From: a virus
Lineage: Duplodnaviria; Heunggongvirae; Uroviricota; Caudoviricetes
Direction: 5' to 3' (one strand)
Virus record (IMG/VR): IMGVR_UViG_2778261540_000003
DNA length: 64,000 nt
Shown here: piece by piece, positions 15,511-40,806 of the stretch
How the letters are laid out: each line of letters starts with the position of its first letter
Position numbering within the stretch: position 1 is the stretch's first letter
Notes under the pieces: generated by a model
Seen by the model: the letters and a program-made list of their open reading frames with translations, nothing else
What the model was told of the DNA's origin: nothing
The model's database searches: none
Made by a program: the position numbers and the translations under genes

Positions 15511-16017
15511 TTGAGTATTTTCAATAAACACGCACACCAGGAACGTCCGTATATCGTCATAGTTGATATTGATGGAACAATATCAGAGGCAACTGAAGAC
15601 AGACTGCATTTGCTTCCGCCACCAGGTAAAGGTGCATTAACAAAGGACTGGAACGAGTTTAATCTCGCCTGTGACACCGATACTCCCATCACTCCAGTTA
15701 TTGATATGGTGCGCCAGTTATTTAACGTTTACACGGTCTGGTTTGTAACCGGGCGCTGTGAGATCGCAAGGGATAAAACACTAGCCTGGCTGCGGAAGTA
15801 CGTAACAAACGGGGCTGAGCCTTTGCTATCTATGCGTCCTGCCACCGATGACAGAAATGACGGCCCAGCAAAGATTGATCTCCTTAAGAAAATTGGTCTA
15901 AGTAAAATCGCGTTCGCGCTGGAAGATAAGATTGAAGTGGCGCGTGTTTTCAGGAGGCACGGCGTGCTTACGTTAATGGTCAGGGAGTATGAAAACGCGC
16001 TTCTCCATCAACAATGA
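15511..16017 (+). CDS. HAD-superfamily phosphatase-like protein
   Basis: IVIVDIDGTI HAD motif I near the N-terminus; 168 aa. Confidence 0.5.
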   Translation: MSIFNKHAHQERPYIVIVDIDGTISEATEDRLHLLPPPGKGALTKDWNEFNLACDTDTPITPVIDMVRQLFNVYTVWFVTGRCEIARDKTLAWLRKYVTNGAEPLLSMRPATDDRNDGPAKIDLLKKIGLSKIAFALEDKIEVARVFRRHGVLTLMVREYENALLHQQ

Positions 16018-16033
16018 TTGCTCTAATAAATAT
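16017..16033 (+). promoter_or_regulatory. C1 operator-like site
   Basis: attgctctaataaatat. Confidence 0.55.
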
Positions 16034-16115
16034 TGATTTTTAAAACAGAGAAAGTGAAAATAAAAACATGCCGCAAGGCGCGGCATGTATCCAATCAATC
16101 ACAGGAGCTGAAAAT

Positions 16116-16202
16116 ATGAACACGGCATTCAAAATCATTATGGCCGCGATCTATTTCTGGCTGTTCTCTATCACTTTTGGCGGCATCGTCGCACATGGGT
16201 AA
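16116..16202 (+). CDS. Small hydrophobic peptide (28 aa, one TM helix)
   Basis: ATG preceded by AGGAGC Shine-Dalgarno; MNTAFKIIMAAIYFWLFSITFGGIVAHG; below the 60-aa ORF-track threshold. Confidence 0.4.
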   Translation: MNTAFKIIMAAIYFWLFSITFGGIVAHG

Positions 16203-16211
16203 GGGGGATGC

Positions 16212-16793
16212 ATGAAAGGCGAAGTGAAAGAGCGCGGCATGATTTTTAACGATGAGATGGTCCGGGCAATTCTTGGCGGGAATAAAACACAGACTCGCAG
16301 GATTGTTGAAGAAAAATTCTATGGACGGGCAGTGGCCGCAGAGTTGCTTGCCAAGCATTGTCCATATGGTCAACCGGGCGATCGTATTTGGGTTCGCGAA
16401 ACCTACCGGGTACATGGCAAAGCGACGGACGTCGCAACGCTGGTTTATCGCGCAAGCGTGCGTAACTCCTGGACAGAACAAACGCACCGGGTTCCGGTCG
16501 AGGTTTGTAATAAACCAGTATCAGAAAAGTGGACGCCATCAATTCACATGCCGCGCTGGGCATCGCGCATTCTTCTGGAAATTACCAACGTGCGCGTTGA
16601 GCGGTTGAACGATATCAGCGAATGCGATGCAAGGGCTGAGGGCGCACCAACAGAATCGACCCTCATTGGCGATAAGCATTACCCAGGTTTCCGTAGCCTA
16701 TGGAAATCAATTTATGGCGAAGATAGTTGGAACGCTAATCCTTGGGTGTGGGTAATAGAGTTTGAGCGTATTCAGGGGGCAACCAGTGAGTGA
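16212..16793 (+). CDS. Phage accessory protein with MVRAILGGNKTQTRR motif (ASCH/PUA-like family)
   Basis: N-terminal motif recurrent in enterobacterial prophage proteins; RBS AAGGGGGA upstream. Confidence 0.5.
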   Translation: MKGEVKERGMIFNDEMVRAILGGNKTQTRRIVEEKFYGRAVAAELLAKHCPYGQPGDRIWVRETYRVHGKATDVATLVYRASVRNSWTEQTHRVPVEVCNKPVSEKWTPSIHMPRWASRILLEITNVRVERLNDISECDARAEGAPTESTLIGDKHYPGFRSLWKSIYGEDSWNANPWVWVIEFERIQGATSE

Positions 16794-17046
16794 GTCAAAA
16801 TGCCAAATTAATGGCAACAAGATAGAACCGTGCGCGGCGTTGGCACAATCCCTGGAGCATGACGCTGAATACACGACGCGAAAAGGTCTGCTGAAATACA
16901 AAATCTATAACCATGAATTAATTCATTCACAAGACCTGATCATGCTGCGGTCTGGTGAATTTTCTAAATCGCCTATTCGAGTTTCATTTTGCCCGTTCTG
17001 TGGTGAAAGTCTGAAAACGTGGGAAGCGGAGGCAACCAGTGAATAA
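16762..17046 (+). CDS. Small protein with C-terminal CPFCGE zinc-ribbon motif
   Basis: 94-aa ORF overlapping both neighbours. Confidence 0.4.
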   Translation: MSVFRGQPVSESKCQINGNKIEPCAALAQSLEHDAEYTTRKGLLKYKIYNHELIHSQDLIMLRSGEFSKSPIRVSFCPFCGESLKTWEAEATSE

Positions 17047-17683
17047 CCGCTTTTACATGATGTGCTTGCGTGAAACTGTGGGTAATAACGCCTCATTCCA
17101 TTGCCATAACGGCAATGGTTACAGTTCTGATATCGATCGCGCTCATGTTTACACGCTGGAAGAAGCCCAAAAAGCCTGGAATTGTGGACGAGATATCGAT
17201 CAGCCTGTTTGCGCTGATAGCGTGGATGCAATGGCTGTGTGGCACGTTGATTGCCAGTACATCCCCACAGAAAGCCTGATTGAGTCAGATTGCACTGCGT
17301 ATGTGGCCTACAAAAAAGGTAGCTGGAACGGCAACGATGTTTACTGGCTTCAACACGGTGGATTGCCAACAGATGACTTCAGTAAAGCGACCATCTTTAG
17401 CGTCGCCAACAAAAACGAACCAGGAATAGTTTGGTTGCCATTTTCCATTGCTGATGCAGCAAAGCGTCGGACGTTCAATATCAATAACTTTAACCGCAGA
17501 ACAATGGTTCAGGGCGCAGGTTTGGTCATGCCTGACTGGTTGAAAGAGCAGAACAGAAGAAAGAAGTCGCGAAGCGGGAAGGTGCGTTGGAATTGTCCGC
17601 ATTGCGGAAAAATAACCTGGCAGTACAGCCCATATGATTTTGAAGGCTGTAGTGATTACAACTGTGAAGGATGGCGAGAATGA
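17039..17683 (+). CDS. Hypothetical protein with C-terminal CxxC...C cluster
   Basis: 214-aa ORF; NCPHCGK...CSDYNCEGW motif. Confidence 0.45.
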   Translation: MNNRFYMMCLRETVGNNASFHCHNGNGYSSDIDRAHVYTLEEAQKAWNCGRDIDQPVCADSVDAMAVWHVDCQYIPTESLIESDCTAYVAYKKGSWNGNDVYWLQHGGLPTDDFSKATIFSVANKNEPGIVWLPFSIADAAKRRTFNINNFNRRTMVQGAGLVMPDWLKEQNRRKKSRSGKVRWNCPHCGKITWQYSPYDFEGCSDYNCEGWRE

Positions 17684-18429
17684 CAATTGACTATCAGGCA
17701 CTGCGTGAGGCGGCAGAGCGTGCAATTCCGGCAATGGAACACCTGTTAATGTTGCCAGTTGATGATGATTTGTTAACTGAACAGGAACTTAAGGATTACG
17801 GTGTGGATATTGATGCGCTCAACGCCTTCAAATTTCTGACCGGACCAGAAACCGTGCTGGCACTACTGGATGAACGGGAAAGAAACCAGCAATACATAAA
17901 ATGCCGCGACCAGGAGAACGAGGATATTGCGCTAACGGTAGGGAAGCTGAGAGTTGAGCTTGAGGAAGTAAAACAACACGCTGAAGAATTATCCGAAACC
18001 AAGGCTGTTCGTAACCAATGGCGGCCAGATATTTGCCCAATAACCGGACGTGCATTTTTCATGTGGATTGAGCATCCAACATTGGGAAATGTGCCGACAT
18101 ATGGTGGCCCATTAGATAGTTACACCATTCCAACAAAGGACGGTGACGGTGAGTTTTCATGTGAGCGTTACGATCATGATTTTGGCGGTTGGGTAGAAAG
18201 CGAATGTCTTGGGTTATATCTGATTGATGATAGAGAACAATGCAGGGTCTACGAACTGGAGGAACGCGTTAAGGAACTGGATGCTCGGGAAATATCGCTC
18301 CCGGAACGTAGCAGCATGCTTCATCGAACAGATTTTCACGATGATTACCAAACGGTAATGGCATACAAAGTTTCTGAAGTCATCGATGCAATCCGCGCCG
18401 CAGGCATTCGCATCAAAGGAGGTGAGTAA
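17671..18429 (+). CDS. Ead/Ea22-like protein
   Basis: 252-aa acidic protein resembling the lambdoid Ead/Ea22 family (remembered similarity). Confidence 0.5.
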   Translation: MARMTIDYQALREAAERAIPAMEHLLMLPVDDDLLTEQELKDYGVDIDALNAFKFLTGPETVLALLDERERNQQYIKCRDQENEDIALTVGKLRVELEEVKQHAEELSETKAVRNQWRPDICPITGRAFFMWIEHPTLGNVPTYGGPLDSYTIPTKDGDGEFSCERYDHDFGGWVESECLGLYLIDDREQCRVYELEERVKELDAREISLPERSSMLHRTDFHDDYQTVMAYKVSEVIDAIRAAGIRIKGGE

Positions 18430-18601
18430 TGCGTGTGGCATGTATCGGCTTGTTACCGTACCCGACTCGTTTTTGGGCTTCTGCGCTAATTGCAAAGCCG
18501 TATGTCCTGATGGCTGACAACATCATCCCGGCACCAAAGCGCCGCCATACCGGTATTGCAGCGGCACGACGAGCAGCAAAGAGACGCAGGAGAGCAAAGC
18601 G

Positions 18602-18778
18602 ATGAAAAACCGTAAGGCAAAACGACTTTTTTTACAGCGACCTGTGCGTGTGGTGGAGCTGGTTATTAGCAACCATAAGATAGCGGTACTCCATCCATTT
18701 GGTCAGGTGGCTTTTGCCGCAAAGCGTAAGCCTACTGCGTCACAGAACAGGCGGAAGAAAGGGTACGCTGTAAGATGA
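18602..18778 (+). CDS. Small basic protein, MKNRKAK paralog 1
   Basis: 58-aa ORF beginning MKNRKAKRLFLQ; its stop overlaps the start of a second MKNRKAK ORF (ATGA). Confidence 0.35.
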   Translation: MKNRKAKRLFLQRPVRVVELVISNHKIAVLHPFGQVAFAAKRKPTASQNRRKKGYAVR

Positions 18779-18963
18779 AAAACCGTAAAGCAAAGATTCT
18801 GTTAGTTCGTAGAAACGCTCCTGGCGTCTGGCAGTGGGTGAGACTCAGCAACCGACGGATGGGGTTGATGAAATATTACGGGATGATGGATTGTGGTTTT
18901 TGCAAAAAGCCCAGCGCGGCGCAAAACCGCTGGAAAAACCACTTGCGCACTAAAGGAGAGTGA
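18775..18963 (+). CDS. Small basic protein, MKNRKAK paralog 2 (CxxC)
   Basis: 62 aa, same first 7 residues as the upstream ORF. Confidence 0.4.
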   Translation: MKNRKAKILLVRRNAPGVWQWVRLSNRRMGLMKYYGMMDCGFCKKPSAAQNRWKNHLRTKGE

Positions 18964-18964
18964 T

Positions 18965-19174
18965 ATGGCTATCGCTGCAAGTTACACCATGCATCTCTAT
19001 TGTGATTGCCTCCAGTGTACAGATGGCAAATATAAGTCGCCAGACTTCGGTGAGTATATAGGTACGTCATGGGCTGGCTGTGCAAAAGAGGCGCGCAAGG
19101 ATGGCTGGCGAATAAGCAAAGACAAAACGCGTGCTTTTGCGCCCGGGCATAAAGTTTTGAGGATTAACAAATGA
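18965..19174 (+). CDS. Small cysteine-rich protein
   Basis: ATG after AAGGAGAG RBS; MAIAASYTMHLYCDCLQCTDGKYKSPDFGEY. Confidence 0.4.
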   Translation: MAIAASYTMHLYCDCLQCTDGKYKSPDFGEYIGTSWAGCAKEARKDGWRISKDKTRAFAPGHKVLRINK

Positions 19175-20367
19175 CCACTATAACCAAAGAGCGACTGCTG
19201 ACAATCAAGCAGTGGCGCGAAACATACGGACCGGGTAGCAACGTTGTACTGCCAGCAGAAGAAGCGGAAGAACTGGCACGGATTGCTCTGGCATCGCTGG
19301 AAGCAAAACCAATAGGTGCATTCCACATTGCAGAACAGCAAGTTGACGGCACAAGTGACTACCTCAAGGATGGAGAATGGCCTATTGATAATGGAATTAT
19401 TGAGGTCTACGCCGCTCCCCCCGTTCCAGTAGTACCGGAAGAAAAACCAATGCCTAATCCTCTTAGCATGTACGCGGTTGATGCTGTTGCCGCTATTGCA
19501 GAGGTGAGAGGCTGGAACGCCTGCCGCGCCGCCATGCTTCAGTCCGGAAACTTTCGGGAAAATAAGAATTCGTCAACCAATAATTTTCGGGAAATCGCGG
19601 AAACGTCAACCAACTATCCGGTAATTCCTAGTGAAGTGTTGTCCGCAATCCTGAAGGTTGCCAAGATTCGTGCCGATTTCGATGATTTTGACGGTGACAG
19701 GCGAGGTATCGGTGATTGTCTGGATGAGGCTGAGCAAGAGCTTATCGTTACCATTAACAAATATGCCAGTCAGTTGGCAGCAGAACCGATAGCGACTAAT
19801 GACGTTCGAGAGCAAACAGCCGTTCCGCCAGTTCCTGTAATACAGGCTGATGTCGCGCAGGCAATTGAAAAACTCAAACGGAAATTAGTGGAATGCAATC
19901 GCTATAACTACTGCGCAGATGCAGTTAAGGGCGTTGAGTATGCCTGCCACGCTGCCATGCTTCAGGGTAGCCAACCTGTAAGCCAAACTTACAAGTTTCC
20001 AGTTAATACACCTTGCCAGGATGCGCCAGCCCATATCTGGCTGCAAACAGCTGGAGTATGGCCAGAAGATGGCGAGTTAAGCGAATTAACGTGGTGCAGC
20101 CACAATCAGCACCATGATGACACGCTATATGTTCGAGCTGACTTGGTAAATGGCAATTCTCAGGTAACTCCGGATGGTTGGATAAGCTGTAGTGAGCGAA
20201 TGCCCGCTCAAGATGATTGGATTTTAATTTATTCAAAGCACGGTGAGTATATGGCAGGACAGGTGCAAGGGGAATACGTGGAGTTGAGCGACGGCACTTT
20301 ATCCTGGTTAGGGAACGCCTTGTTCTGGATGCTGCTACCAGAACCTCCCCAGGAGGCAGGTCAATGA
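19171..20367 (+). CDS. DUF551-like C-terminal domain protein
   Basis: 398 aa; C-terminal WISCSERMPAQDDWILIY motif typical of the DUF551 prophage family (remembered). Confidence 0.5.
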   Translation: MTTITKERLLTIKQWRETYGPGSNVVLPAEEAEELARIALASLEAKPIGAFHIAEQQVDGTSDYLKDGEWPIDNGIIEVYAAPPVPVVPEEKPMPNPLSMYAVDAVAAIAEVRGWNACRAAMLQSGNFRENKNSSTNNFREIAETSTNYPVIPSEVLSAILKVAKIRADFDDFDGDRRGIGDCLDEAEQELIVTINKYASQLAAEPIATNDVREQTAVPPVPVIQADVAQAIEKLKRKLVECNRYNYCADAVKGVEYACHAAMLQGSQPVSQTYKFPVNTPCQDAPAHIWLQTAGVWPEDGELSELTWCSHNQHHDDTLYVRADLVNGNSQVTPDGWISCSERMPAQDDWILIYSKHGEYMAGQVQGEYVELSDGTLSWLGNALFWMLLPEPPQEAGQ

Positions 20368-20431
20368 GCTGGCCTGAAGCATTCGCAACGGTAGGAATTG
20401 TGATGGCGGCAGCACTGGGTTTGTATTCAAT

Positions 20432-20683
20432 TTGTCGCTGGTGGTAACGATGGGGAAATTAACTTTTGTAGTCGAATTTGAGGATGGTAAAGAGCCACCT
20501 GTTAGCGCCAATCTTGATGTTGCTGGTGGAAGGATTGTTTCGGTTCTATTTGGTGACTACCGAGATGACTTCTTCCAACCAGAAGAAGTTGATGTGGTGC
20601 GAGAGGCATTAAACGAGTTAAGTGTTGACAACGATGATGCTCATGCGGAAATCATCCAAAAAATGGAACTGCTAACTCACTAA
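20432..20683 (+). CDS. Small acidic protein
   Basis: 83-aa ORF. Confidence 0.4.
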   Translation: MSLVVTMGKLTFVVEFEDGKEPPVSANLDVAGGRIVSVLFGDYRDDFFQPEEVDVVREALNELSVDNDDAHAEIIQKMELLTH

Positions 20684-20861
20684 ATTATCAATTATGGTGC
20701 TATAACCTACGACACCGAGAGAAAATTTATAATGTCAAAAGTAAATGTTTTGATTTTTTCAGCAATTGTTGGCTTTGGTTTTACTGCCGGAGTGCAGATT
20801 TATATTACGTGGGAAAAAATCATCAACTACGCATGGAGTTGTTTTATTAAGTGAGGTAAGT

Positions 20862-21155
20862 ATGTGGAGAGGTAATAATCATGGCAAAAGCCAGATGATA
20901 CTTACCGAATATAAGCTAGACCACAAAACCAATAAATCACGCTCAGTATATTTGCTCCGGCACAATAGTCGCGTAAGAAATACCGTGCTGGAACAAAATC
21001 TGACAGTTGAAATGGATAATTACGGGGGATTCAAGCCAACAATTTCACTTGATGATTTTCCTCGTGGTTTAAGCGAAAGAGAAGCAATGCTGAAATTAGC
21101 AGAATGGCTACAAAGATTAAGCATTGCTATTGAAGATAACTGGTCTGAACCTTAA
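20862..21155 (+). CDS. Hypothetical protein encoded in AT-rich islet
   Basis: About 97 aa from ATG 20862 (RBS GTGAGGTAAG); local GC clearly below the backbone. Confidence 0.4.
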   Translation: MWRGNNHGKSQMILTEYKLDHKTNKSRSVYLLRHNSRVRNTVLEQNLTVEMDNYGGFKPTISLDDFPRGLSEREAMLKLAEWLQRLSIAIEDNWSEP

Positions 21156-21161
21156 ATTTAT

Positions 21162-21536
21162 ATGATGACACTAAAACATTTTCTTGACCGCCCATTATGG
21201 GCGGCAGCCGCAGGCTATGACTTTAATTATATGGATTGCATGTCTTATACTGCCAATGCATACGACCATTCGTTCAGCCTGCTGTTTAATTCTTTAAGAA
21301 TATTGCCGGAAACAGAAGTTGGAGAGCTTCATTTATGGCTATTGGGCTTTATCGCGGCTGTCGTTGGTATTGCTGTATGGCCTTTTATTTTCTGGCTGGT
21401 GGCTGTTGTAGTGTGGTTTAAGTGCAAGGCATACCGGAAAAAGTATTTCTTAGGTGATGGAATGACTGATATTGCCAAAATGAACATTGAAAAATGGACT
21501 AAGGAATGTGAAAAGAAATGGCGCAAAAAGAAATGA
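21162..21536 (+). CDS. Small membrane protein (two TM helices, Lys-rich tail) in AT-rich islet
   Basis: 124 aa; hydrophobic core LWLLGFIAAVVGIAVWPFIFWLVAVVVWF; KKWRKKK terminus. Confidence 0.45.
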   Translation: MMTLKHFLDRPLWAAAAGYDFNYMDCMSYTANAYDHSFSLLFNSLRILPETEVGELHLWLLGFIAAVVGIAVWPFIFWLVAVVVWFKCKAYRKKYFLGDGMTDIAKMNIEKWTKECEKKWRKKK

Positions 21537-22291
21537 CAAGAATCACTAAAGAACGCATATCAGAGATTATCGCCCGTATCGAAATGTATGGTCACGGTGC
21601 TGGATATACGGCAGATGAAGTATTGGCACTTGCCCAAATGGCTTTGGCGGCTTGCAAAGATGATAAAAAAATGAAGCTTATCGACTTGTTAGTGAAGGAG
21701 CTGCCCAAGTGCGGCGGGTGGCCTGATGGTATGATCGATTGTCGCCTGCTCAGTGCCAATTTAATGGCGCCATGCGCGACTTTTGCTTTTGGCTCGGACC
21801 ACAAAAAAGACACTTTCTTTGGGCGCAATTTTTGTTGTGAGATTGAGCTTCCAATCGGTGACCTTGATAGCGATGAATACCAGTCAGTTGTCACTCGCGA
21901 ACAATACGAAGCTGCTCTCATAGCGTCGCAGAAAGTCGAGTTCAATGGTGATGAACCTGAAAGTAAGGCTTACAAGTTAGATTTTGAGCAATGGCTGGAA
22001 CAGCAACGCGGGAAAATCGATGTGGACTGCGGTTGTGTGTCTGCGGAAACATTCATGCACTGGTTGCGGGTAGCTTATGTGGCTGGCAACCATCCGGATT
22101 TTCCGGATAGTTCCCAACAATCGCCCAAGAAAAGCGTAAAAACCACTCTGGAAAGAGGCTATCTTGAGGCCGCATTAAAGATTAAGCCGGGCCATACGCT
22201 AGGCGTCATTGATGCCATGTTGGTTCATGAAATGGCGAAGGCTTTATTGCCGCTGGTGGCTGATAAAATTCCGAATAAGGCCGATATCTGA
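21518..22291 (+). CDS. Hypothetical cysteine-containing protein
   Basis: 257-aa ORF with overlapping start. Confidence 0.45.
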   Translation: MAQKEMTRITKERISEIIARIEMYGHGAGYTADEVLALAQMALAACKDDKKMKLIDLLVKELPKCGGWPDGMIDCRLLSANLMAPCATFAFGSDHKKDTFFGRNFCCEIELPIGDLDSDEYQSVVTREQYEAALIASQKVEFNGDEPESKAYKLDFEQWLEQQRGKIDVDCGCVSAETFMHWLRVAYVAGNHPDFPDSSQQSPKKSVKTTLERGYLEAALKIKPGHTLGVIDAMLVHEMAKALLPLVADKIPNKADI

Positions 22292-22330
22292 TCACCATGC
22301 TAAAATCCCCTCAATTCACAGAGGGGATTT

Positions 22331-22603
22331 TTGTATATGTTGCATAGAGTTTTATGGAAAAGCGTTATTGTCGGCGCGATACTGGCTATATCTGGGTGTG
22401 CAATGGTGCAATACAACGACGGTGAAAAGGTAAGCATACAGTCAGATGGTTGGTATGGCCTGGATAGCCTGCAAAAAACCGCAGATAAAGCCTGTCAGCA
22501 ATATGGGAAGTCTAAAGCAGTATATCAGCATAGCGCGAACGCTAACCCTAATCTTGCGCCCGGTTCGGGTGTTCAGAATACCATCTGGAAATGTGAGCCT
22601 TAA
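22331..22603 (+). CDS. upl: Small lipoprotein (lipobox ISGC)
   Basis: Signal peptide plus lipobox; sits immediately upstream of the theta homolog, as P1 upl does. Confidence 0.5.
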
Positions 22604-22605
22604 AT

Positions 22606-22845
22606 ATGAGCGACTGGAATATTGCAGCTAAAAGTCAGGAAGAACGGGATAAGGTTAACGTTGATCTGGCTGCCAGCGGTGTGGCGTACAAAGAGCGATT
22701 GAACATACCTGTCATAGCTGAACAGGTAGCCCGCGAGCAACCAGAGAATCTGCGCACCTATTTCATGGAACGGTTACGGCACTATCGGCAGTTAAGCCTC
22801 CAGTTGCCAAAAGGGAACGATCCGGCATATCAGAAAACAGAATAG
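22606..22845 (+). CDS. hot: Homolog of DNA polymerase III theta subunit (HolE-like)
   Basis: [36 protein letters not shown] closely matches E. coli HolE. Confidence 0.8.
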
Positions 22846-22856
22846 TTGTTAGGCTA

Positions 22857-23219
22857 TTACGCAATGCCCGCGCCATTCTTAGCGGGTTTTAAGCCATATT
22901 CACCGTTGTAGAAATTACTCATGTTCCATTCATTGGGAAGCTCTTTTCTGTCCAATGTATAGTGGCGCACGATATAACGATCTTCATCTTCTTCGATGGA
23001 CAGGCGGACATAGCCAATGTGAATTACCGATACGGGCGGTGTTCGTATTGCATAGATGTCGCGAAGATATACCGGTAGCTCGACAAATGCATCAGGTGCA
23101 TCTGTGATGCTCGTTTTTTCACAGTATTCATATAACGCATCGTTGATATCGTTAAGAGATTCATGATCGTATATTTCCAGGTAATTACCGCGATCGCGAT
23201 GGTACTCGATTTTAGCCAT
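22857..23219 (-). CDS. Hypothetical protein
   Basis: 120-aa ORF downstream of the LexA-box-associated gene. Confidence 0.4.
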   Translation of the reverse strand: MAKIEYHRDRGNYLEIYDHESLNDINDALYEYCEKTSITDAPDAFVELPVYLRDIYAIRTPPVSVIHIGYVRLSIEEDEDRYIVRHYTLDRKELPNEWNMSNFYNGEYGLKPAKNGAGIA

Positions 23220-23804
23220 TCAAAATCCCCTGTTATCGTTTTGCATTTCTCTAATCCGGTTCAGAACTACTTCATGCTGGACTTGGATAGCGGCTTTTTC
23301 GTTTTCAAGCCGGGCAATAGACATCTCTAATTCTTTGCTGTACCAGGCGAGCTGGGCCAGGTTCATCCGGTTGTGGTCGAGAGTTGGAGACACTTCGACG
23401 CGATCCCTTTCTTCCTGCTTTAATGAGAAGAGATTTATCTCATCCCTTGAGGAAAATTCAGCAACAATTTCTTGTTGATGATCCGGTCGCTGCGGCATCC
23501 TCGCCAGTATAAATGGCGGTTCTTTTGAAAACATGAATGTCGGTTCAGACCGTGTTTTTACCCAGCTTGCCTGCTGTCTTTCGGCAAGTTCACAGGCTTC
23601 ATCATAGTTATCTGCCAAACAAAGCACGGATGGACGGTCCCACGCCCCACCATTCAGACAATAAACTACAATTTTCCCGTCAGGTTGTGTAACCCCATAT
23701 GGATGGTCCCACCAGGCGTCCAGCTGAGCTTTAGAGCGTTTCTCGTTAGGAGTGCAGTCAAAATTTTTGGGCAATACAGGATCGAGAGGAATGCGGGCAG
23801 GCAT
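23220..23804 (-). CDS. LexA-box-associated protein of unknown function
   Basis: 194-aa ORF transcribed divergently from humD, sharing the LexA box region. Confidence 0.45.
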   Translation of the reverse strand: MPARIPLDPVLPKNFDCTPNEKRSKAQLDAWWDHPYGVTQPDGKIVVYCLNGGAWDRPSVLCLADNYDEACELAERQQASWVKTRSEPTFMFSKEPPFILARMPQRPDHQQEIVAEFSSRDEINLFSLKQEERDRVEVSPTLDHNRMNLAQLAWYSKELEMSIARLENEKAAIQVQHEVVLNRIREMQNDNRGF

Positions 23805-39141: not shown

Positions 39142-39616
39142 GGGTTTTATCGTGCTGGTGGAAGAGGAAAACAGCTTTATTACTGGTCGAGTTGGCCAGC
39201 GTGTAAGGTTGCGCGATCCCTTCATGAACGGCAGGCCGGTACTGATTGAAGCAATGCAGATTTACAAGGAGCTGGAACGCCAGAAAGCGATCAAGTTACC
39301 GCGCAAGGAATCCGGCAAATACATCCTCCACCAAAGCATCTTCGATTCCGAACACGATAAAAAAGGCGATGAATTTTTCAACATCAACTGGAGCGAAATA
39401 ACGACAGAGCATGTTCTGACGTTACTATGTTGCTTTGCGACGGAATACAACAACGTTGCCAGCGCCGAGTACATCAGGGCAATGGCTTCTGAAGTGGATA
39501 GTCGTGATGACTCATCGCTGATAGCGTCATATATAAACATCATCAAGAAAACTCAAATTATGGGATGCGCTAGAGTTCCTCAAGGAATACTCACCGGAAA
39601 GAATAATATTCTATAA
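39142..39616 (+). pseudogene. 3' fragment of mat-like gene interrupted by Tn3-family insertion
   Basis: In frame with 33873-34186 after excising the transposon and one TSD copy. Confidence 0.6.
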
Positions 39617-39713
39617 CCTACGAAGGTTATTTGTTACTTTCTGCGTAAACCCACAACTAACCTTCCTAAGTTAAGGAAGGTATTTATCATGAAGTGTAGA
39701 CATAAGCGTATTA

Positions 39714-40754
39714 TTACATGGGCTTAACCACAACCTTTCCGTATATATCAAGTTTTGATTGTAATACGTTGACGTGAGACAATTCTTTATTCGAACTAAC
39801 TTTATCTAAAATTATATTTTTATCTTTTTCAGTCATGTTATACCCTAAGGTAATTTGCTTGAATGCAGAAAAAGGAATTTTCTTTAAGTTAATTTCATGA
39901 TAGTCATGAAAAACATCAGGATACTCATTCAATAGGCAATCATCAATCGATGGAGAGACAATGCTTCCTATTTTTCTCTCGCAATCAGCCAATGGAAAAA
40001 TAATTCTACTTTCATTTTCAGGAAGCCACTCTTCACCTTTTGTATAAAGAAGCCTATTAATAAAAAGCTCGCGAACTGGATCTCGATTTAAGATCCCATG
40101 CAATGTATTATCTTTATTCTTTATATCTATATTCCTCGATGGCGCAGGATAGCCATTAAATCGCACAGCGCCTTTATAATAGGTTACAGATGCTCTATCT
40201 TCTGGATTATAACTAACATCACACGGCCGATATATTTTAAAAAAATCGTGTGTTTCATCGAAAACTACAGCAAACCCCTTTCCTATCGATGCATAATGAG
40301 TCCACATGTGTAGATTGCAATCACTTTTTGATAGAGAGAATACACCAAGATGACAGCTTACGGCTTCTACTAAATAATCGTTAAGGTACGTTACTATTTC
40401 TTGGAGTTTAGATTCATCATATGAATCCATTGAGGTAAAACCTTCATTGATTAACAAGTGTGGAAAATCCTCTCCGTATCGTTTCCCGCAAGGTTTTAAA
40501 TAATACTCTAACTCTTGTATAGATGGGACATAAGATGGATCTCGTTGCATTTTCTTAAATTCATTTCTAGCCCATGCGTAATCGGCTGGTGAAAATTTAT
40601 TAAAAAATGGAAGAAGTCGCGACTCACTCGACGGATCATTAAGATACTTTGGTTGCGTTGCTCTAAAGAAACCATCCTCCAGACAAGATGTTCTAATGTG
40701 CATGCCCGGCCAAGGTTTTTCCATATAACTCTCGCCTATATATTTAACTAACAC
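39714..40754 (-). CDS. AT-rich gene encoding a DUF2971-like protein, candidate defence/accessory gene
   Basis: 346 aa; low GC relative to flanks; motifs YLNDPSSE and HMWTHYASIGKGFAVVFD resemble the DUF2971 signature as remembered; GTG (or ATG 40724) start. Confidence 0.55.
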   Translation of the reverse strand: MLVKYIGESYMEKPWPGMHIRTSCLEDGFFRATQPKYLNDPSSESRLLPFFNKFSPADYAWARNEFKKMQRDPSYVPSIQELEYYLKPCGKRYGEDFPHLLINEGFTSMDSYDESKLQEIVTYLNDYLVEAVSCHLGVFSLSKSDCNLHMWTHYASIGKGFAVVFDETHDFFKIYRPCDVSYNPEDRASVTYYKGAVRFNGYPAPSRNIDIKNKDNTLHGILNRDPVRELFINRLLYTKGEEWLPENESRIIFPLADCERKIGSIVSPSIDDCLLNEYPDVFHDYHEINLKKIPFSAFKQITLGYNMTEKDKNIILDKVSSNKELSHVNVLQSKLDIYGKVVVKPM

Positions 40755-40806
40755 TGTATATCGATCCTGTTGTTTAAGCCCATATCATATGGGCTTTAAA
40801 TGATTA

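Follow-up and report, generated by a model that had tools for sequence, protein, structure and literature searches.

Does a short AT-rich patch carrying a small soluble protein and a small membrane protein represent a dedicated exclusion, abortive-infection or toxin-immunity module, or is it one more piece of temperate-phage mosaicism? The question is raised by a 64,000-nucleotide stretch of viral DNA (IMG/VR record IMGVR_UViG_2778261540_000003; this whole stretch is called the window below), for which an earlier, sequence-only reading had proposed a two-gene islet of the first kind. The window is a P1-like phage-plasmid of the SJ46/RCS47 type. Because P1-like phage-plasmids occur commonly in E. 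coli and Salmonella and disseminate resistance genes, it is of practical interest what their variable regions do.

An AT-Rich Patch with Three Small Genes

The composition does drop sharply, as the sequence-only reading had claimed. In a 300-bp sliding-window plot, the GC content falls from approximately 0.48-0.50 to 0.36-0.42 across roughly positions 20600-21700, which makes the dip approximately 1.1 kb wide rather than the approximately 850 bp first proposed. The segment 20690-21540 has a GC content of 0.383, compared with a mean of 0.486 (standard deviation 0.032) for segments of 851 bp taken along the window. Segments as low as this make up 1.5% of all, and the sole poorer stretch lies at approximately 39300-40800.

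The two open reading frames described earlier, encoding 97 and 124 amino acids (the latter ending in KKWRKKK), are both present on the + strand; we call them p97 and p124 (Table 1). Both are real genes. Their dN/dS ratios are low (Table 1), every P1-like allele is intact, and third-position changes dominate among these alleles, which indicates purifying selection. The islet is not a two-gene unit, however. Upstream of p97 we find a third gene, p40, which encodes a membrane peptide of 40 amino acids (dN/dS of 0.50 among P1-like alleles). Since this open reading frame also matches a family, the true gene units of the islet are three, not two. The profile matches of p40, p97 and p124 to PHROGs families are full-length, and every family that they match carries the PHROGs label “unknown function.”

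Table 1. Features of the islet and its surroundings, in window coordinates
Feature	Position	Strand	Details
C1 operator, equivalent of P1 OpmgT/Op88	16017..16033	+	consensus match, one mismatch
398-aa ea-type gene, C-terminal DUF551	19171..20367	+	Pfam DUF551 E 5e-9; left flank of mosaic segment
Direct repeat, left copy	19973..19997	+	25 nt, imperfect, 80% identity, spacing 1981; P7 junction
77-aa acidic protein, just upstream of islet	20450..20683	+	phrog_3876 (“unknown function”) E 2e-52
p40, 40-aa single-TM peptide	20732..20854	+	phrog_5525 E 1e-24; annotated in vB_EcoM-813R1
p97+p124 mosaic module, 682 bp	20856..21537	+	blastn: 95% identity to RCS47
p97, 97-aa soluble protein	20862..21155	+	phrog_1258 E 8e-50; dN/dS 0.15
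p124, 124-aa membrane protein	21162..21536	+	phrog_2638 E 5e-63; dN/dS 0.25
Downstream ea-type gene, right flank	21533..22291	+	252 aa from ATG 21533, or 257 aa from 21518
Direct repeat, right copy	21954..21978	+	25 nt, imperfect; P7 junction
Terminator-like hairpin, probable operon end	22302..22331	+	11-pair stem, just past last stop codon; also inverted repeat

The Patch Lies in a Variable Region of P1-Like Phage-Plasmids

The interval 20300-21900 is 100% identical to the E. coli plasmid pLH85-a-A and 95-96% identical to the phages SJ46 and vB_EcoM-813R1, while approximately half of it is matched in RCS47, at 95% identity. The genes around it follow the order pmgS, pap, a block of small + strand genes, hot, humD, phd-doc, pdcB, lpa, pacA, which is the order of P1-like phage-plasmids. 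The islet thus has the conserved pmgS/pap genes on one side and the conserved hot/humD/phd-doc genes on the other, at a position whose content differs among P1-like genomes. The section from pmgT to humD has been published as “variable region 8” of P1-like phage-plasmids (PMC9603915). In elements of the SJ46/RCS47 type, the islet region takes the place of the P1 genes pmgT-pmgU-pmgV-upfMNO.

Comparison to P1 and P7, which the sequence-only reading had put forward as a check, finds the islet absent from both: searches with DNA and protein sequences alike give no homologue of p40, p97 or p124 in either genome. Of 5426 complete E. coli genomes, 674 carry the backbone marker pmgS, 307 carry p97 and 269 carry p124, nearly always on plasmids. 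The islet is therefore present in approximately 40-46% of E. coli P1-like elements (269-307 of the 674). Its absence from P1 and P7 and its presence in only part of the P1-like elements support a horizontally shuffled, variable islet.

The edges of the variable segment can be placed with some precision. Just upstream of the islet is a gene for an acidic protein of 77 amino acids, which is an annotated CDS in pLH85-a-A and has a dN/dS of 0.06. On either side lie two paralogous ea-type genes, the downstream one having an N-terminal MTRITKER module in common with the 398 amino acid gene. Compared with P7, the window has an extra 1.98 kb (19988-21959) inside a single P7 gene, upf89.5. The P7 product corresponds to the N-terminal part of the 398 amino acid protein, which it matches up to position 19987, followed by the C-terminal part of the protein encoded after p124. 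Homology to P7 breaks at 19987/21960, and both junctions coincide with copies of a 25-nt repeat inside the paralogous genes. This provides a concrete route of gain and loss, namely recombination at short repeats within paralogous ea-type genes. RCS47 gives a second set of edges: it shares only the 682-bp module of p97 and p124, and both flanks of the module differ.

Are p97 and p124 Partners?

Within the P1-like lineage the two genes travel together. All 78 P1-like IMG/VR loci that contain a close p124 also have p97 upstream of it, in 76 of them directly, and P1-like elements with p124 but no p97 essentially do not occur. A profile search with a shallow p124 alignment matches almost solely P1-like copies.

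Outside this lineage the pairing is lost. Nine loci, in Yersinia and Klebsiella phages, in N15-like elements and in further viral contigs, contain distant homologues of p124 (35-60% identity), and none of the nine has a p97 homologue within approximately 2.6-6 kb of flank on each side. The p124 relatives stand by themselves, surrounded by replication, recombination and methylase genes of the early type. Conversely, the p97 homologues in the early/nin regions of N15, mEp235 and SPN9CC have no p124 nearby, the one in SPN9CC being located in the nin region between ninF and an HNH gene. Proteus phages have both families, approximately 6 kb apart and on opposite strands. In these unrelated lineages, the p97 and p124 families do not occur as neighbours.

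The pair can also be taken apart among P1-like elements. Approximately 38 E. coli P1-like elements have p97 without p124. Some P1-like plasmids carry alternative cassettes after p97, encoding a two-TM protein of 58 amino acids, a signal-peptide protein of 69 amino acids, or both. In the loci L086/L087, a 54 amino acid two-TM gene and a hairpin are inserted between p97 and p124. The loss of pairing outside the P1-like lineage, the inserts and the alternative cassettes all argue that adjacency reflects the recent shared descent of a module and not a conserved functional pairing. Since p124 is essentially never found without p97 in P1-like elements, where both belong to the common 682-bp module, there may nevertheless be some cooperation specific to this lineage.

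Expression Context of the Islet

The C1 operator upstream of the gene block overlaps predicted sigma-70 promoters (P2/P1pmgT, approximately 16018-16061, by homology to the P1 annotation). The operator/promoter region is 99% identical to OpmgT and P1/P2pmgT of P1 and to Op(hea) of P7. From 16212 to 22291 every gene is on the + strand and abuts or overlaps its neighbour. In the islet itself, the genes are separated by 48, 7 and 6 nt, followed by an overlap. The Shine-Dalgarno sequence of p97 (GAGG, 5 nt upstream of the start) overlaps the stop codon of p40, while p124 has no Shine-Dalgarno sequence and starts 6 nt past the stop codon of p97. In RCS47, the module of p97 and p124 is 23 nt from the upstream gene.

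A consensus scan finds no + strand sigma-70 promoter near the islet, with the reservation that AT-rich DNA can hide weak promoters. We considered TGcTATAAC (approximately 20699-20707) as a private extended -10 promoter and rejected it: it has a C at the conserved last position and is accompanied by no -35 hexamer. A TATAAT sequence overlaps the start of p40. There is no Lpa-dependent P1 late-promoter box near the islet, and an Rfam scan of 19000-23500 finds no RNA family. A terminator scan of the + strand finds no strong site before the end of the block. Apart from a weak site of six pairs (22202-22216), the hairpin after the last stop codon is the first + strand terminator-like hairpin downstream of the operator. 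A predicted lipoprotein gene (88 amino acids, 22337-22603) lies shortly 3' of the block.

Judging from this arrangement, the islet genes probably belong to the distal part of an early operon that C1 represses, and their translation would be chained. With no consensus promoter or terminator of their own in the scans, and located downstream of a pmgT-type promoter that C1 would repress, they are probably silent in the lysogen, in contrast to typical prophage defence morons. Weak promoters hidden in the AT-rich DNA may still give some expression in the lysogen.

Proteins Encoded by p40 and p97

Homologues of p40 with 50% identity adjoin ea22/eaa genes in lambdoid phages. The p97 family is widespread in Enterobacterales prophages (130 clusters), and the relatives of p97 include N15 gp44, phiKO2 gp43, mEp235 gp51 and SPN9CC_0035 (34-69% identity). 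The family alignment shows a strongly conserved C-terminal helix. In an AF2 model of p97 (pLDDT of 84), four antiparallel strands are packed on this helix. A Foldseek search of the model against the PDB gives nothing at E <= 1e-3, and a fold search of BFVD returns a single uncharacterised relative only.

The p124 Family of Membrane Proteins

The family of p124 is small, with 16 clusters in a set of 5.8 billion proteins and 36 representatives among 1.84 billion proteins. Its members are mostly 105-131 amino acids long, with a few shorter fragments (down to 58 amino acids); two exceptions among the matches are weak, multi-stretch ones in large proteins. The architecture consists of a conserved N-terminal motif, a single hydrophobic segment (residues 56-86) and a basic, amphipathic C-terminal tail. 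The N-terminal motif, TxKHFxDxPxxAxAAGYDFNxxDC, is near-invariant, and the family alignment also shows a Cys-Lys/Arg juxtamembrane site and an amphipathic C-terminal helix. The KKWRKKK tail noted in the sequence-only reading is present here and is not conserved across the family; the coding sequence of this tail runs into the start of the next gene, with an ATGA overlap at 21533-21536.

The sequence-only reading had described p124 as a hairpin with two transmembrane segments. We find a single stretch instead: an uncharged run of 31 residues, from L56 to F86, with a proline at its centre. Among 26 family members this run has a median length of 27 residues (range 20-34), which is too short for two membrane spans. 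The flank on its N-terminal side is acidic and the one on its C-terminal side basic, with K+R of 1.7 and 4.7, respectively. From these sequence features, p124 is probably a single-pass protein with a cytoplasmic C-terminal tail rather than a two-span hairpin. Its topology is nonetheless uncertain, as export of an N-tail of 55 residues without a signal peptide would be unusual. The AF2 model consists of one long helix (residues 55-95) of low confidence (pLDDT of 58) and is too poor for a fold search.

Family and Literature Searches

The family searches give no homologue of known function for the islet proteins. Pfam and NCBIfam give nothing above threshold for the islet proteins, sequence profile searches of the PDB with the p97 and p124 families give nothing, and none of p40, p97, p124 and the neighbouring proteins matches a PADLOC-DB 2.0 model at E <= 1. 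Searching the literature by protein accession, PHROG id and topic, we found nothing on the islet proteins. We also tried p124 as a member of Cpta_toxin (PF07254) and rejected it: the match scores 13.3 bits against a cut-off of 27.3 (E-value 0.093) and covers the hydrophobic segment only, and no member of the p124 family matches Cpta_toxin at E <= 0.01.

Discussion

We consider it likely that p40, p97 and p124 are three small accessory genes that move independently and together form a mosaic patch in a known variable region. The best-supported account of its AT-rich composition is ordinary temperate-phage mosaicism, with no recognisable defence or toxin module. The genes would come from the ea/nin-type early-region gene pool of lambdoid and N15-like temperate phages, and recombination, both at gene boundaries and between modules repeated in the flanking ea-type genes, would bring them in and remove them. 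Part of this was already known: public records list the sequences as hypothetical proteins assigned to PHROG families, and a published account of the variable region exists (PMC9603915). The islet shows us no new kind of system.

As far as the sequence can tell, transcription would run through an operon of approximately 6 kb, from the C1-repressed PpmgT-type promoter at approximately 16.03 kb to the hairpin at 22.30 kb. If this operon model holds, the islet genes would be off in the lysogen and turned on early after derepression. Translation would then be chained, from p40 to p97 through the Shine-Dalgarno sequence that overlaps the p40 stop codon, to p124 6 nt further on, and to the next gene through the ATGA overlap. 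The p124 product would insert into the inner membrane and most likely cross it once, leaving the basic tail on the cytoplasmic side and the conserved acidic N-terminal domain on the outer side, and p97 would be a separate cytoplasmic alpha/beta protein.

No homologue of these proteins has a tested function, and we therefore infer their roles from context alone. The most likely roles would be non-essential ones in lytic development. p124 would probably act at the envelope, e.g., in the exclusion of superinfecting phages or by interfering with the host membrane, and p97 probably acts alone. Action at the envelope is favoured for p124 because the slot repeatedly holds small envelope proteins and a lipoprotein gene follows downstream. 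Envelope-level exclusion may be the work of p124 by itself.

It is tempting to go further and to regard the p124 family as a new class of phage single-pass inner-membrane proteins, whose conserved, probably periplasmic N-terminal domain would bind a conserved envelope target and so prevent superinfection or take over a membrane process at an early stage of the lytic cycle, with the pmgT-hot slot as a dedicated hotspot for small envelope-acting proteins. We offer this as a conjecture only and think it rather unlikely. The p124 family is small, well-defined and uncharacterised, and it is the sole element of the islet that deserves a bench test.

A different role is conceivable in which at least one of the islet proteins is an early anti-defence or host-takeover factor and has no envelope or exclusion function. 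An early operon in an accessory hotspot would suit such a factor, the relatives of the islet genes are found in nin/early regions, where genes of this kind cluster, and the strongly conserved C-terminal helix of p97 suggests a binding surface. We judge this role unlikely.

The sequence-only reading had favoured a two-component exclusion, abortive-infection or toxin-immunity module, in which a membrane effector and a soluble partner protect the lysogen. What speaks for it is that p97 and p124 are adjacent, translationally coupled and carried among P1-like elements as one travelling unit of 682 bp; in addition, the DNA is of a foreign, AT-rich type, p124, a membrane protein, is small and ends in a basic tail, and there is the sub-threshold match to Cpta_toxin (E-value of 0.09). 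That match falls well short of the cut-off, however, and the proteins have no match to a defence or toxin family, PADLOC included. The pairing is not conserved outside one lineage, and even there p97 occurs without p124 and another gene can be inserted between them. Finally, the scans find no private consensus promoter, and the genes lie downstream of a promoter that C1 would repress. A dedicated toxin-immunity or abortive-infection pair is therefore not supported and not the reading we favour; such a module seems to us quite improbable. More improbable still is that p124 controls the timing of lysis as a holin- or antiholin-like protein that permeabilises or primes the inner membrane: the likeness (small size, an MM start, a hydrophobic segment and then a strongly basic C-terminus) is superficial, holin families in Pfam and PHROGs give no match, the conserved N-terminal domain of 55 residues is unlike holins, and in the eight non-P1 loci examined the neighbours of p124 are early replication, recombination and nin genes, never an endolysin or spanin.

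Comparison with Known Systems

The CptA/YgfX toxin and the soluble CptB/SdhE likewise place the gene for a small membrane protein beside that for a small soluble one. The resemblance ends there: the score of p124 is far under the cut-off, no SdhE-like match is seen for p97, and the two genes are not a conserved pair. Superinfection-exclusion proteins such as T4 Imm, P22 SieA and HK97 gp15 are small phage-encoded inner-membrane proteins. They are functional analogues of p124 at most; p124 matches no annotated PHROG or Pfam exclusion family and, judging by the operator upstream, is probably repressed in the lysogen.

Much closer is the pmgT-pmgU-pmgV operon of P1, or “hea” operon of P7. It occupies the same position between pap and hot/humD, behind the same C1 operator and promoter (99%), and like the block described here it consists of co-directional, tightly packed small genes without assigned function. 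The gene content has been replaced, however, as P1 and P7 have no homologues of p40, p97 and p124.

The genes themselves find their counterparts in the nin/ea regions of lambdoid phages and the early right operon of N15. Homologues of p97 occur in both (34-69% identity), relatives of p124 occupy comparable positions in N15-like and P22-like phages, and relatives of p40 adjoin ea22/eaa in lambdoid phages; all are small, mosaic, early genes. Whereas the lambdoid and N15 genes are under CI/Cro-N/Q control, the islet would be under C1 control in a genome of the P1 type, and it is only in the P1-like lineage that the families of p40, p97 and p124 are combined.

Possible Gain and Loss of Cassettes in the Slot

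A comparison with P7 points to how the islet (the AT-rich patch carrying p40, p97 and p124) might have come and gone. A 1.98-kb segment of the window is absent from P7, and its two junctions coincide exactly with the copies of a 25-nt imperfect direct repeat. P7 carries upf89.5 here, which looks like a fusion of the N-terminal part of the 398-aa DUF551 gene with the C-terminal part of the 252-aa ea-type gene, the genes that flank the segment on the left and right. Because upf89.5 is fusion-like and the repeat lies at the junctions, we suggest that the cassette may be gained or lost by recombination between paralogous ea-type genes. The lowest GC content of the window, about 0.34, lies elsewhere (approximately 39300-40800) and is below that of the islet.

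Other P1-like plasmids have alternative cassettes in the same slot (loci L086, L087, L095 and L096); in L086 and L087 the cassette is placed between p97 and p124. Small envelope proteins seem to accumulate in the slot.

Features of the slot and its surroundings (window coordinates unless a locus is named)
Feature	Position	Strand	Details
Leader hairpin	16066-16088		GC-rich; 5' of leader ORF
Leader ORF	16116-16202	+	28 aa, hydrophobic (MNTAFKIIMAAIYFWLFSITFGGIVAHG); between C1 operator and first annotated gene of the operon
398-aa DUF551 gene	19171-20367	+	intact
Direct repeat	19973-19997; 21954-21978		25 nt, imperfect
Predicted lipoprotein gene	22337-22603	+	88 aa; signal peptide with lipobox LAISG|C
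upf89.5 (P7)	L005 6372-7670
Alternative cassettes	L095 2800-3265; L096 2825-3034
Cassette product 1			54-58 aa; two-TM
Cassette product 2			69 aa; signal peptide, several cysteines; phrog_20764
Probably mis-named p124 homologue	L006 4001-4360		Yersinia phage vB_YenS-P840 ORF53
Probably mis-named p124 homologues			Proteus phages VB_PmiS-Isfahan, 2207-N35
PLSDB entry, identical plasmid	L001 4875-5901		only a 55-aa CDS, at the 3' end of the DUF551 gene

Annotation and Neighboring Genes

Public records name homologues of p124 “conotoxin” and “ribonucleotide reductase large subunit.” Neither name is backed by sequence, and both look like annotation errors. For the DUF551 gene, PLSDB's table for the identical plasmid has just a 55-aa CDS at the 3' end, which probably reflects a gap in the table and not a real pseudogene.

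When the window is aligned with both P1 and P7, the leader hairpin is invariant and the leader ORF differs by a single base; the P1 and P7 annotations have no CDS at either feature.

Directly upstream of hot is the predicted lipoprotein gene, whose product matches phrog_7757 (PHROG label “unknown function”). The protein could be a receptor-blocking candidate of the Cor/Llp-like kind, but no similarity turned up.
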